DNA of 64,000 nucleotides from Yuukianura sp. NJ FZ-2021 (lineage: Eukaryota): assembly GCA_046563655.1 (NCBI GenBank), contig CM102290.1, positions 11,842,001 through 11,906,000 on the forward strand, read 5' to 3'. The translations under genes and the position numbers were made by a program. Under the pieces are notes generated by a model. The model saw nothing but the letters and a program-made list of their open reading frames with translations, ran no database searches and had not been told where the DNA came from. Shown here in pieces: positions 4,322 to 35,854 of the stretch (positions within the stretch are counted from its first letter, which is position 1; each line of letters opens with the position of its first letter).

Positions 4322-19248
<14,927 letters not shown>

Positions 19249-29481: not shown

Positions 29482-29880
29482 CAGTGTTGGTGGACGCTTA
29501 AACGTCCAGTGGCTTAATTGCCACTTCCAGTGGATATCCACTGGAAGAAACGCACCCCAAATGGACGAAACTAAAAGTGGATGGAAGAAATCACAAATTT
29601 TGCGCGAAATTCAAATCAATTCAAATTTAAATTTAACGAAATGATATCAGAAAGCTTTACTTTCGCGATTATAGTTAATATATTATTTAAATCGTATTTA
29701 AAAACGATATATACATAGTTTTTGAACTGTGTTTTCACGTTTTTTAGTTGTTTGTAGTCAATCAATTCAAATTCAGAGGGCAAAGCTCCGCCCCTTTGGA
29801 TTCATCCATTTCGTCCATTTCTTCCACTGGATATCCAGCCGTGGATGAAATGTCGAAAAAGTGGATATCCACCAACACTG
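29482..29880. mobile_element. hAT-like MITE, 399 bp
   Basis: 13-bp TIR cagtgttggtgga/tccaccaacactg. Perfect 8-bp TSD ggcgtcaa at 29474-29481 and 29881-29888. Confidence 0.9.
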
Positions 29881-29981
29881 GGCGTCAATAATAATCTCCG
29901 TAATTTCTGCTGTTTGAAAGGCGAGCGGGAGATTCCTTGGTAATTACATAGCTCTGGAACTATCCATCACAGAGCACTCTT

Positions 29982-31481
29982 CTAGTGTGAATTTTGATTA
30001 TGAATTCGAATTTTGCCGCTGTGACGGGTAATTTCAGGTCCAGAGGGGTAATGTCGCTGATGATCTCGTAGAGAGTCGAGCAGTCCACCATTGTTGTTCT
30101 GCCGATGTCGGTGAGAGGAACTTGGACGGTGGTGATCATCTCTGGGATGATACCGATTGTTTCTCGAGTCTTCGTTATGATGTCCGGCAGAACCGTGATT
30201 TACTGTCAGTAACTTCACATGCTAAAAACAAATTCATTATTACAAGTTTTGTTCGGAATTACTAAAGTAATCAATTTGAAAACTAGATAAAGTTGTGCAA
30301 ATGAAGTGACTTACGTCTGAGTAAGCCTCTTCTTGTTTCTTCATTTTCTTTTTGTAGTGTTTCAGATATTTTAGGATGTCTTCATTCTCAGCCTGGAAGA
30401 AACGATCAACTCAGATAAGATTTTTCGATTTACCTACGTTATTATCATAAAAGTGTTCAAAACTTGCCAGTAGATGATCCGAGCTTTTCTCTAGCTGTTT
30501 AGAACTGTGACGAAGTTCCACTACTTTGGTAAAGAATTTACAAAGCAGCCTAAGCTGTTCGTCAGATGACAAGTTAGCCAGTCTAGTCATGATTAGCTGC
30601 TTTGTTTCTTCATGGTCCTTGTAAATAAAACAAAAGCAATGAGATAAGAATGTCGATAGGTAATTCGTAGTGTAAGAATGTCAAATTCAACTAACAAGAA
30701 AATATTTTTACTTTTTCTGGAAACAGCTGAGGTGGACTGGACTCTTTTCCGCAGATGACTTCGTTCTTGTAGTCAATTATCGTGTCAATTGCTTCTATCA
30801 CTTCTTCGCATTCATACAACCATCTAGCATCTTCGTCTGACTCCGTCTAAAGCAGAAACACCATATTGCATCTCAAATTCAATTACTTTCCACACTGTGA
30901 TTACTTTTTAAGACAAATGGTTGTTAAATAACCTGCTTTAGGCGCTGCTTCACTTCTGTTTTGTGGGAAACAAAAATTTCGCGAGCAGTTCTGAGTTCAG
31001 CGATTTCATCCCTGGCCAAATCTATGGTAACTTCTGTTGTGCGTGGTGGAGACATCCGGAACTCTGCCGAATCCTAGAAATACCGTCAAAACTTATTGAA
31101 TGCTCGAGAAACTCACGACCCACGAGCATTTTTTTAGGAGTAACTTTATATTTTTAGGGTCCGGTGGCATACGTATTGTTCCGGTGTATCATGTTGCGTC
31201 TGTTGTTCTTCCTTATCCTCAATTCCCGGTTCCTGTTGTGAATGTGTAGCGAAACTGAACACATAATGTTTATGGTCGCAAAACGTTTCTGCAATCCGGA
31301 CTTTGTTATCCACGGCGGCACGGAATCTAACATTGAATTGTTCCAGATCCTCTGTCTCCTCGGAGTCTTCTGAATCTGAATTATCGTCTTCTTCATCCCA
31401 ACTGTCTGAATTGCCGGCAGAAAATTCATCGTCTTCGTCACAGTCCGAAGTTGACATGGAAGACCTTCGTACATCCGTCAT
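29982..31481 (-). CDS. Costal-2/KIF7/KIF27 C-terminal tail-like protein with an acidic N-terminus and no kinesin motor
   Basis: Six exons (first 31481-31173, second 31073-30933) give ...RDEIAELRTARE...RWLYECEEVIEAIDTIIDYKNEVICG...LIMTRLANLSSDEQLRLLCKFFTKVVELRHSSKQLE...EITRHSGKIRIHNQNSH*. This resembles the Cos2/KIF7 tail motifs as I recall them (EAIEAxDAAIE[Y/F]KNE; LMA[K/R]L..LS..E.R.LL.KYF.KV..LR). Confidence 0.7.
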
Positions 31482-31943
31482 TACCGAATCACCAGAGGTA
31501 TGGAAGAGACCTGGAAAAATGAATGAAATCATCATTGTTTTAGCCACCTTAGGAGGGTTAAACGGTCAAGATTGGCGATCGATAAATTGAAACGTTCGTT
31601 TTACCTTCTGTATCATGAGTTCAAATATCCAACACGAATCGGTATTTATATCTTACCGTGCTATAAATTACTCTATAATTTAAACTTATGAAATTCAACT
31701 GTGAATGAAAATGAAAATGTGGAGTAGGTCGGATTGTTTACATTTTCCACTTGTCTTCTTTACCGCCCCGTGTTCTCACCCCACGCTTGCAACAAAGAAA
31801 ATGTAAAACAATTAGTAGTTGATTAATCTAAGTTTAAACTTTCTGAAACGAAGTTAGCAAAAATTGATAAAAATTTTAGTCAAAACTTTATTCCTTTGTC
31901 AAACTTGGATTTTTTTTAACTTACAGTAGTTAGCAATTAGTCA

Positions 31944-34142
31944 GTAAGTATTTGTGAAATGTGTAAAATAATTAAATAAGTCGTGTTACACGTATTTTTT
32001 GATCGTTTCCAAATTTTGGGGGAATGAAATACCTTTTGAAAGAAAAATTTTGGTGAAAAAAATTTCACCCTAACGCAACCCGTTGCTGAGTTGTGAGAGG
32101 TCAAGGTCGCCATTTTGGAAATGTTCACCCGCGTGTATCTCCGGAGTTTCTTAACCGATTGAGGTCATCTTGGTGTCAAATGAAAGCCCTTAACTTGCTC
32201 CAGATGTGGTTTTTTTCAAAAATTTGGTTAAGGGCCCATGGACCCTTATTCTTTTAAATAAAGGAACTTAGGGGTTTTCAACGTAGAATTTTAATCTTTT
32301 CGTTGTAATAACGTTGAAACAGCGAGACTTGACATAGTGGACCCTTAAGGGCCCCCCTTATGACTTTAAGGGCCCCCTGAAATTTTTCCCCATTTGCTCC
32401 GAAACAACGTTTAAACAAGTTTTTAGTGAAGCAGAAAAAATTTAATGCCACTTTTTACTTCAAGGGCCCCCAAGGGACCCATTTAATTCTATCTAACAAT
32501 GAACTTGGGGACTTGACAATGTTAATGACATTAGATAAAGATTATGCGTTAATGACACTCATAACTCTGGTACAAATGACTACACTTCATTAGCACAGGG
32601 TGAATGGAGGTGTCGAACCAGAGGTGGTAGCCTGCAGGTAAACCTGCGCAGGTTGCAGGCCAACCCGCAGCCCGTGCAGGCGGGCTCAACCTGCGGTGGA
32701 TTTTTGCAGGCTGCAGGCGTGCAGGTTTTGATTTGGAAATGTTGCAGGCGGGCGGGTTCAGCCTGCAATGCTCTGCAGGCGCCTGCAGTTCGCCTGCAGG
32801 CTGCGGGTTGTGATTTTTTGAGAGTTTTATTCTCAGAAACTTCACGAAAAGATAGAAACGAATAGAAAAATTACTTTGAAATGTTGAAGAATTAAAGTCA
32901 ATGGAACTATGCAAACTTTTTGCTGCACATTCGTTGCACTATAGGGCCTTTAAACAATAAAAAATAAATCCAGAGGCAGAAATATGGTTAAGTAAAGTTG
33001 GCGTTACACTTGCCCGTGTAGACTAGGCAAGATTTGACAGTATAACTTTTGCGGATTTTTTTATGTGCAAGGATCAAGAATTTTTAAAAGTTAAACAAAC
33101 CAAAAGTACGGTAGCAGTGTCGTAAAACAATATATTACAAGGAATTTTTCTCCCTACGTGTTTGGAAAGGACAACCGACAGATAATCGAGGGTGATTGAG
33201 TAATTGCCATTATACGCAAACGAATTTACGCAGTAGTTGTAAGTGTATATTAACATTTCCGTAAATAACAGTTCGTATAAAAAAAATTGCAGGCTAACTG
33301 CAGGCAGCCTGCGCAGGCTGCAGGCTGGCCTGCCGAAGACCCTTGCAGGTGCAGGCGTGCAGGCTGCCGATTTTCGATAATTTTGCGGGCTGCAGGCGTG
33401 CAGGCTAAAATTTCGTGCAGTGCAGGCGGGGCGTGTTGGGGAAAATAGTTGCAGGCTACCACCTCTGTGTCGAACTCAGTTGTCTGTTCAAGGCCCCCTA
33501 CGCTTCATATGGGTTCAATGTGATAAATATAACTAGAAATTAATTACATTAACTTTTAGTATCTTCTGCTTTCAATTTTCAATTCATTGTTAGATAGAGA
33601 TAAATGGGTCCCTTGGGGGCCCTTGAAGTAAAAAGTGGCATTAAATTTTTTCTGCTTCACTAAAAACTTGTTTAAACGTTGTTTCGGAGCAAATGGGGAA
33701 AAATTTCAGGGGGCCCTTAAAGTCATAAGGGGGGCCCTTAAGGGTCCACTATGTCAAGTCTCGCTGTTTCAACGTTATTACAACGAAAAGATTAAAATTC
33801 TACGTTGAAAACCCCTAAGTTCCTTTATTTAAAAGAATAAGGGTCCATGGGCCCTTAACCAAATTTTTGAAAAAAACCACATCTGGAGCAAGTTAAGGGC
33901 TTTCATTTGACACCAAGATGACCTCAATCGGTTAAGAAACTCCGGAGATACACGCGGGTGAACATTTCCAAAATGGCGACCTTGACCTCTCACAACTCAG
34001 CAACGGGTTGCGTTAGGGTCAAATTTTTTTCACCAAAATTTTTCTTTCAAAAGGTATTTCATTCCCCCAAAATTTGGAAACGATCAAAAAATACGTGTAA
34101 CACGACTTATTTAATTATTTTACACATTTCACAAATACTTAC
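31944..34142. mobile_element. Foldback-type non-autonomous DNA element with ~560-bp inverted arms
   Basis: 31944-32503 is the near-perfect reverse complement of 33583-34142. The ORF track shows the same spurious 63-aa peptide on opposite strands. No clear TSD beyond a possible TA. Confidence 0.85.
32619..33467. mobile_element. hAT-like non-autonomous element nested in the foldback spacer
   Basis: 18-bp TIR cagaggtggtagcctgca. 8-bp TSD tgtcgaac at 32611-32618 and 33468-33475. Dense subterminal gcagg/cctgc repeats flank an AT-rich core. Confidence 0.92.
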
Positions 34143-34413: not shown

Positions 34414-35854
34414 TCAAGATGCAGCGGTAGACGTGGCCGGGCGTTTCATTTTCGGTTTTTTGGCTTGTTCATTTTCAGTCTTGCTAGGCTCCTTAACCTT
34501 GATAAAGACACCATCACAATTTGCTCCATGGTCACTCCACCAACGATCAGATGGACCAGGAGCACGATTCATTGCACGCTTGACCATTCCGTAGAAAGGA
34601 TGTCTATGACGACAGGGACCGTTGCACTGCCACCAGTGCTGTTTGTAATGTCCAACTTCGTCATGGAACGAATGATAAATCTAGAATGAATGAGCATTGT
34701 TATTAGTGTAACATCCATCTTCTACTAAAGTGGTGAAAAGTAATTGAGAAAATAATTCAAGTTTTAATTACAGTAATTTTTGCTCCACTGGCTTTATTGA
34801 TCCGGTGCATGTGCTCCTGGAAGTTGGGTCCATGTCCATCACGATCATGGCTATCACCTTTTCCGGGTTCCAGGAACAGATAAGCGTGAATCATCTCATG
34901 CTGTGTAAAAGTAACATAATGGAATGGAAATTAATCCCAGATGAACTTTAGATTGTCAAGTACTAGTAAATGTTAATTCCTTACCAACAATGTTTCCACA
35001 AGATCCTTGCGTGGACGAAGTTTTAGTAACGGAAGTGAAAGCTTGATACGAATTTCGGAGAATCGTCCGACCCGTTTAAAATAGCACAATCCAGCACAAG
35101 TTGTCATCTTTGAGCTCCATTCAACCGTGACTGTTCCAAGTTTGTCCCAGAAGTAGGTGGCGTTGTAAAGCAAGAACAGAGCATGTATGTCGGGATTAGG
35201 ATCGATCAATTCCCAGGAAGGGTCTATGACCGAAGTTGGTTTGGTTTGGCGATGTTGATATGGATCAAGAGTAGTTAGTGCACGAGATGGAGGTGACCGT
35301 GGTAGAGGAACTGGACGAGTAGACGCAGATTGTGGTAATGGAACAGGTACTGCACGAGACAAGGAAGGAAATGACAGGGTAGGCTCAGTTGGAATTGTAA
35401 TTGCGGCTGGCGCAGGCGTATTCCAAAATTCTCGTCGAGCAGTGATAGCCCCAGCAGCAGCGGGCCCATTCGATGATTTCGGTAAAACAGGCTGATCTTT
35501 GGAACGGAATATTGGCCAGAGATCCTTCCCTGGGCTGGATTTGGAAGTGCCTGGAGTGGTATCGCTTTGTTCCTTTCCATTAGATTTAGTTTCAATTCCA
35601 AGGAGCGACTTTGGAAAAACTTGCCATCCGTTTTCATCGACATCGATCTCAACAATTTCAGTCTTTGTACGTTTCGTGTGTCCATTACGTAACTCATCTC
35701 CTTCATGTTGATCGAGCAGTTCATGAGTCGACTCCTCTCCCTTTCTTGATGAAATAGGCTTGTTGGAAGCATTGCCGTTTCCAGCTACCATGATCTCTGC
35801 CGGAATCACTTGCCAACCATCATCATCGAGTTCAATCACTTCCACGGAATCCAT
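34414..35854 (-). CDS. SPRTN: SprT-domain metalloprotease of the Spartan type, ~421 aa
   Basis: Exons 35854-34985, 34900-34772, 34680-34414. Reads DPSWELIDPNPDIHALF...WSSKMTTCAGLC...LSLPLLKLRPRKDLVETLL|HEMIHAYLF (HExxH) ...GHGPNF...HWWQCNGPC...VKRAMNRAP...WWSDH...C.G.FIKVKEP. Confidence 0.88.

Follow-up and report, generated by a model that had tools for sequence, protein, structure and literature searches.

Can the stalk and tail of a signalling kinesin persist as a gene of their own, apart from the motor? The question is raised by a locus on the minus strand of a 64,000-nt stretch of the genome of Yuukianura sp. NJ FZ-2021 (GCA_046563655.1, CM102290.1, positions 11,842,001-11,906,000; this whole stretch is called the window below, and all positions are given in its numbering). 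A first-pass annotation, made from the letters alone, had read the locus as a motorless tail protein of the Costal-2 (Cos2)/KIF7 type. Our own reading is close to this and is tentative: with a probability of roughly 0.4, the gene encodes a motorless stalk/tail protein derived from a kinesin-4 of the Costal-2/KIF7/KIF27 type. The observations of that annotation proved largely right, and its interpretation is partly supported.

The locus holds a frame of 360 codons that runs through six exons (29982-31481) without an internal stop, from an ATG at 31481-31479 to a TAG at 29984-29982. All five introns are of the GT..AG type and in phase 0, with lengths of 99, 86, 94, 45 and 93 nt, which agrees with the coordinates and the intact, in-frame exons first reported. 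Likewise, the acidic segment of about 100 residues that had been noticed ahead of the coiled coil corresponds to exon 1, whose 103 residues include 22 Asp or Glu among the first 60; the GT donor of this exon is present, and its frame was read from the sequence. The middle part of the product is helix-prone and has heptad-like spacing. Over the last exon, two open frames of 79 codons overlap on one strand, of which the His-rich one fits the splice phase. The other 79-aa frame (29960-30199) is out of phase 0 from the AG at 30222-30223 and is without a relative, and it was rejected. An assignment of the exons to the C-terminal part of SPRTN was rejected as well, since the relatives are without a SprT domain and the zinc-binding exon of SPRTN ends in a stop.

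Exon 4 alone was run with HMMER against 1.84 billion cluster representatives at E ≤ 0.001 and retrieved three relatives only (E 1e-8 to 2e-4). Two of them are assembly ORFs, P0001 (114 aa, 63% identity) and P0003 (71 aa). The third, P0002, is an uncharacterised protein of 567 aa from the springtail Orchesella dallaii (Collembola; CAL8081910.1 / UniRef100_A0ABP1PY16); it is the only named relative and is referred to below as the Orchesella protein. Residues 105-265 of the spliced product align with its residues 188-352 at 36% identity (E 5e-24), over a core of 160 residues. A metagenome scan with the family motif yielded two contigs, L001 and L002, with collinear exons (E 1e-17 to 7e-19), and exon 3 is 56% identical to its counterpart in L001; a scan of genome contigs gave no relative. 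Exon 1 is matched too, by L001:538-810 in tblastn (31254-31409, E 2e-4) and by residues 63-118 of the Orchesella protein (31239-31409).

The relatives also agree in exon structure. The intron positions after exons 2 and 3 and ahead of exon 4 match, with GT/AG, in the window, L001 and L002. The intron between exons 4 and 5 is present in the window, L001 and P0001, the last of which aligns across exon 4, the read-through intron and exon 5; it is absent in L002, where the two exons are fused (665-880). By alignment, this difference reflects the gain or loss of an intron in the family. Because the significant relatives have the same exon structure, 29982-31481 is, judged by sequence, a real protein-coding gene and more than a chance set of frames. 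It belongs to the family of CAL8081910.1 by the similarity of the exon 2-5 core, including the CK[FVY]FxKVVELR helix, and by its exon-intron structure. The coordinates of the exons and of the adjoining features are collected in Table 1.

Table 1. The six-exon gene and the features immediately upstream of it, in window positions
Feature	Positions	Strand	Description
Exon 1	31173-31481	-	103 aa; ATG, acidic Ser/Asp/Glu-rich stretch, then a short helix-like segment common to the relatives
Exon 2	30933-31073	-	47 aa; first core helix; ..LKQ right before the intron, likewise in L001
Exon 3	30712-30846	-	45 aa; second conserved helix, followed by a linker with Gly/Pro
Exon 4	30438-30617	-	60 aa; most conserved helix; family motif CK[FVY]FxKVVELR
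Exon 5	30315-30392	-	26 aa; basic helix, also in P0001
Exon 6	29982-30221	-	79 aa and TAG; His/Arg/Asn-rich low-complexity tail
5' flank	31482-31943	-	between the ATG and the foldback element; read by eye
Foldback element	31944-34142		arms 31944-32503 and 33583-34142, 560 nt each, 99% complementary; spacer of 1079 nt
SPRTN-like gene	34417-35854	-	Pfam PF10263 SprT-like (E 1e-12 and 5e-10); PF22934 SPRTN_ZBD (E 6e-26)

The window gene retains the 12 columns that are invariant among the four sequences of the exon-3 alignment (A3), and 17 of the invariant columns in the exon-4 alignments, which have 17-18. Over 122 aligned codons, third-position identity is 0.36-0.37, which is the chance level, and dS is not computable (saturated); over the same codons, dN is 0.34-0.51 and 47-60% of the residues are kept. 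Since synonymous sites are saturated while this share of residues is kept, the family is, by codon comparison, old and constrained, with the constraint measured at family level. In the window product and the Orchesella protein alike, an acidic segment is followed by a short helix, two helices, a linker, a long helix that is conserved and a His-rich tail, and both are without a kinesin domain in Pfam. The Orchesella protein, however, is 207 residues longer and has an extra coiled segment (353-430), and the two fail to align at their termini; the Orchesella protein is, moreover, uncharacterised, and the start annotated for it may be incomplete. A His-rich tail also occurs in L002 (ORF 1150-1788). 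Neither residues 353-430 of the Orchesella protein nor the matching segment of L002 have a counterpart in the window. Among the sequences compared, the window copy is the shortest form seen. Its short exon-5 form is common to P0001, which suggests that more than one genome has this form.

Where does the gene begin? The frame remains open beyond the ATG up to 31565 (84 nt upstream), with an in-frame ATG ATG at 31535-31530. Inspection by eye revealed a candidate acceptor at 31512-31511 (ttttccag) and a candidate donor at 31604-31603, which would delimit a 5'UTR intron of 94 nt, in the same size class as the other introns of the gene; TATAAATA is found at 31650-31643 (by eye). If the candidate intron is spliced, the coding frame is closed by a stop in the upstream piece, which would leave the ATG at 31481 as the first in-frame one. 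With the same splicing, the TAA that closes a 13-codon upstream ORF from 31615 would overlap the main ATG (TAATG, 31483-31479; by eye). A stop/start overlap of the TAATG type is a layout typical of termination-reinitiation. In L001, an extra open exon at about 181-491 can be spliced in frame to the acidic exon through a 74-nt intron; a candidate acceptor for this extra exon is present at 180/181, and L001 ends a short way upstream. For this upstream exon (L001:125-496), tblastn found no counterpart anywhere in the window (best E ~1).

The reading frame starts 463 nt from the foldback element. The near identity of the arms points to a recent insertion or a possible hazard for the assembly, and the ORFs of the element match no Pfam family. 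Next comes the SPRTN-like gene, followed further upstream by genes for a deoxyhypusine-hydroxylase-like HEAT protein, Sina, an MTG1-like GTPase, mitochondrial L22, a P5 ATPase and THOC7, where the names deoxyhypusine-hydroxylase-like and MTG1-like are our reading of Pfam domains and ORF sequences. Downstream, an inverted-repeat element is followed by a SPOP-like BTB gene and a UCH protease gene. The first-pass annotation had placed only a foldback and SPRTN upstream of the gene and had concluded that kinesin motor exons were not nearby. Both features are confirmed, by the 99% complementarity of the arms and by the SprT-like and SPRTN_ZBD matches in Pfam. As for the motor, PF00225 was matched by none of the 119 ORFs that are 50 aa or longer on the minus strand of 31500-64000 (E ≤ 0.01), by none of 58 other ORFs (E ≤ 0.001; 58 of the 221 listed ORFs of at least 62 aa), and by none of the six exons of the gene. 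A six-frame motif scan of the window found the kinesin P-loop, switch I and switch II in no plausible ORF, and the sole SSRAH match lies in a 90-aa plus-strand ORF without a Pfam family. These scans, which cover 32.5 kb upstream, bear out the claim about the motor exons, and a motorless gene within this 64-kb window is supported.

Does the motorless product descend from Cos2, KIF7 or a related kinesin? No named Cos2, KIF7 or KIF27, nor any other kinesin, was matched significantly by any sequence search used. Pfam returned only junk for the six exons of the window (E > 0.2) and nothing relevant, including no kinesin domain, for the Orchesella protein. Searches of the PDB by sequence and by profile, for which exons 3 and 4, the Orchesella protein, the L002 exon-3 ORF and the profiles A3 and A4 were used, retrieved no kinesin, and the best sequence matches were chance ones (hibernation factors and GCN4 constructs). 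By word index, exon 4 and exon 3 each gave 0 matches to longer proteins, and the core of the Orchesella protein matched none of 557 candidates among proteins of 994-2835 residues at E ≤ 0.1. These negatives are weak evidence and of low power, because the queries were single exons of 45-60 residues or used a 5-residue word index; with the thresholds applied, a stretch of 25-40 residues at 40-50% identity would be missed. The ESM Atlas returned assorted coiled-coil clusters for residues 195-420 of the Orchesella protein and no usable match for the L001 upstream ORF. A literature search gave nothing bearing on the motif LLCKYF, on DUF7376/PF24091/PF23203 or on motorless kinesins, and for Collembola, Hedgehog and kinesin combined there was no springtail paper among the matches listed.

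A weak pointer to kinesin-4 came from the exon-3-type sequences. Among 24,736 Pfam models, PF23203 (“KIF21A-like domain”) was the sole family matching more than one exon-3-type sequence; it matched two of the four, below threshold, with a best E of 0.17 and a score of about 12 bits against a curated cut-off of 28.5. The exon 3 of the window itself matched neither PF23203 nor any other Pfam family. Exon-4-type sequences match the unrelated DUF7376 at E 9e-4, and the noise among coiled coils is therefore high. As the family type had been named beforehand, we regard the PF23203 match as suggestive of kinesin-4. In addition, Cos2 and KIF7 presumably have similar motifs in the same order as this gene. 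The proposal of a “motorless Cos2/KIF7 tail” thus holds in its first part, by the PF00225 and motif scans of the window. The second part, a resemblance of the exons to the late coiled coil and extreme C-terminus of Cos2/KIF7, was not confirmed: the single-exon and word-index queries, of low power, gave no significant kinesin match. Cos2/KIF7 ancestry of the gene is nonetheless plausible.

The structural comparison was carried out on the Orchesella protein and not on the window protein, using a single-sequence AlphaFold2 model of low overall confidence (mean pLDDT 49.6, pTM 0.23). In this model, helices 200-233 and 240-270, the equivalents of exons 2 and 3, are predicted with a block pLDDT of 65-84 and form an antiparallel helix-turn-helix of about 75 residues. 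The hairpin (194-275) superposes on KIF21A's regulatory antiparallel coiled coil (5nfd_B) with a Z-score of 10.5 and an rmsd of 2.0 over 75 of 78 residues, at 11% sequence identity. Because CHMP4B, seryl-tRNA synthetase and designed hairpins, all unrelated, fit equally well (Z 10-10.8), the superposition indicates a common fold only. A Foldseek search of the PDB with the model gave no match at E ≤ 0.001, and the PDB sequence and profile searches do not retrieve 5nfd. By analogy, exons 2 and 3 of the window gene may encode a similar hairpin.

In comparison to Costal-2 of Drosophila, KIF7 and KIF27, the window gene lacks a motor domain and a significant sequence match, and what we propose to be common is the layout only: an acidic segment, then stalk coiled coils and an unstructured tail. 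The product is also much shorter, at about 360 residues, than Costal-2, KIF7 and KIF27, which have roughly 1200-1400. One report describes KIF7 as having a highly acidic neck coil, further stalk coiled coils and an unstructured C-terminal tail, and states that the neck coil binds the GLI zinc fingers as well as the microtubule-binding face of the motor (PMC12919046). For KIF21A, another study has the regulatory coiled coil binding the motor domain and suppressing microtubule association even as a separate polypeptide, and a BLAST search there connects this coiled coil with the KIF7 and KIF27 C-terminal stalk (PMC4971492). In KIF7 the similar stretch comprises residues 998-1077, and constructs that retain the stalk are autoinhibited, according to a preprint (10.1101/772327). 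Cos2 forms the arthropod branch of the KIF7/KIF27 group and binds Smoothened (PMC9695228).

We hypothesize that a kinesin-4 stalk and tail gave rise to the gene and that the motor was lost or never carried. The product would then consist of an acidic N-terminus, an antiparallel hairpin (exons 2 and 3), a Gly/Pro linker, the exon-4 helix and a basic His-rich tail. If kinesin-4 descent holds, a protein without a motor would be unable to bind microtubules or to hydrolyse ATP, and it would act through its coiled coils only. It could pair with the stalk of a full-length kinesin-4, it could compete for the partners of that kinesin, or its hairpin could be used like the regulatory coiled coil of KIF21A, docking on the motor domain and blocking microtubule binding. 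A narrower proposal, which we consider somewhat unlikely, is that of a stand-alone motorless Costal-2/KIF7-type gene of the hexapod lineage that acts in trans on the full-length Hedgehog-pathway kinesin or its partners. Such a protein would have retained an acidic neck-coil-like segment, an antiparallel coiled coil of the autoinhibitory kind and the conserved helix of the late stalk, and would either damp the microtubule binding of that full-length kinesin or compete for its partners. In nature it would correspond to the regulatory coiled coil which, in isolation, inhibits KIF21A in vitro.

Could the resemblance to kinesin-4 stalks be no more than what charged heptad repeats generally have in common, in a coiled-coil family restricted to springtails and their kin, without kinesin ancestry and with an unrelated scaffold or adaptor role? 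The three relatives among 1.84 billion representatives, none of them a kinesin, fit such an orphan family, and so do the missing matches to long proteins and to any Pfam family at its cut-off, the assorted coiled-coil proteins that resemble it in the Atlas, and the generic hairpins among the structural matches. We consider this unlikely, however. The sole family out of 24,736 models to match two exon-3-type members is of the kinesin-4 stalk type that had been named beforehand, the negative searches, run with exons of 45-60 residues or by word index, have low power, and the motif order that we take Cos2 and KIF7 to have favours the kinesin reading.

The exons might also be the 3' part of an ordinary full-length kinesin gene, with the motor exons far upstream or outside the window, or split off by a misassembly at the foldback element, whose arms are 99% identical. 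Near-identical inverted repeats are classic misassembly sites; moreover, the frame is open for 84 nt beyond the ATG, with a good acceptor (ttttccag) at 31511, and L001 has its further in-frame upstream exon with an acceptor, the contig ending 180 nt before the exon. What makes this distinctly improbable is that the 463 nt between the ATG and the foldback are without an upstream exon of the L001 type, which in L001 is one 74-nt intron away, and that the next 32 kb contain at least five other genes including SPRTN on the same strand, whereas the introns of the gene itself measure 45-99 nt. There is also no motor motif on either strand, and a candidate TATA box and the 94-nt candidate 5'UTR intron (both by eye) fit a local start. 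Alternatively, the locus might be a decaying or non-functional truncated duplicate whose frame is still open by chance, given that its relatives extend further at the N-terminus and beyond exon 5 (the segment of Orchesella 353-430 and L002 being absent here) and that it sits between transposon-like repeats. We regard this as very unlikely: 360 codons are open over six exons, all ten splice signals are intact, the conserved columns of the family are retained (17 invariant ones in exon 4 and 12 in exon 3), and P0001, from another assembly, has the same short exon-5 form.

If descent from a kinesin-4, the reading that we prefer, is true, the gene would be a natural, conserved motorless copy of the stalk and tail of a signalling kinesin. 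It would allow genetic tests of two ideas that have so far been probed with engineered fragments only, namely that a late-stalk coiled coil inhibits a kinesin-4 motor as a separate polypeptide, and that the scaffolding by Cos2/KIF7 is separable from microtubule binding. It would also bear on the divergence of the arthropod Cos2 branch from KIF27-like ancestors. If the ancestry fails, the gene would represent a small, rapidly evolving coiled-coil family, seen so far only in a springtail, two assemblies and environmental DNA.

Several further features of the window may be recorded. The spacer of the foldback element contains two copies of a 33-nt GC-rich direct repeat (at 32702 and 33381). About 150 nt past the stop codon of the gene lies a MITE-like inverted-repeat element (29531-29837) with arms of 25 nt that are 88% complementary, and a perfect 24-nt palindrome is located by it at 29524-29547. 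On the plus strand, the regions 4902-8930 and 12430-16437 carry long Ser/Pro/Lys-rich frames of 577, 175, 184, 358 and 1335 aa, which match no Pfam family at E ≤ 0.001. These frames precede a calponin-homology exon (18686-19048) and probably make up a single large gene for a disordered cytoskeletal linker.
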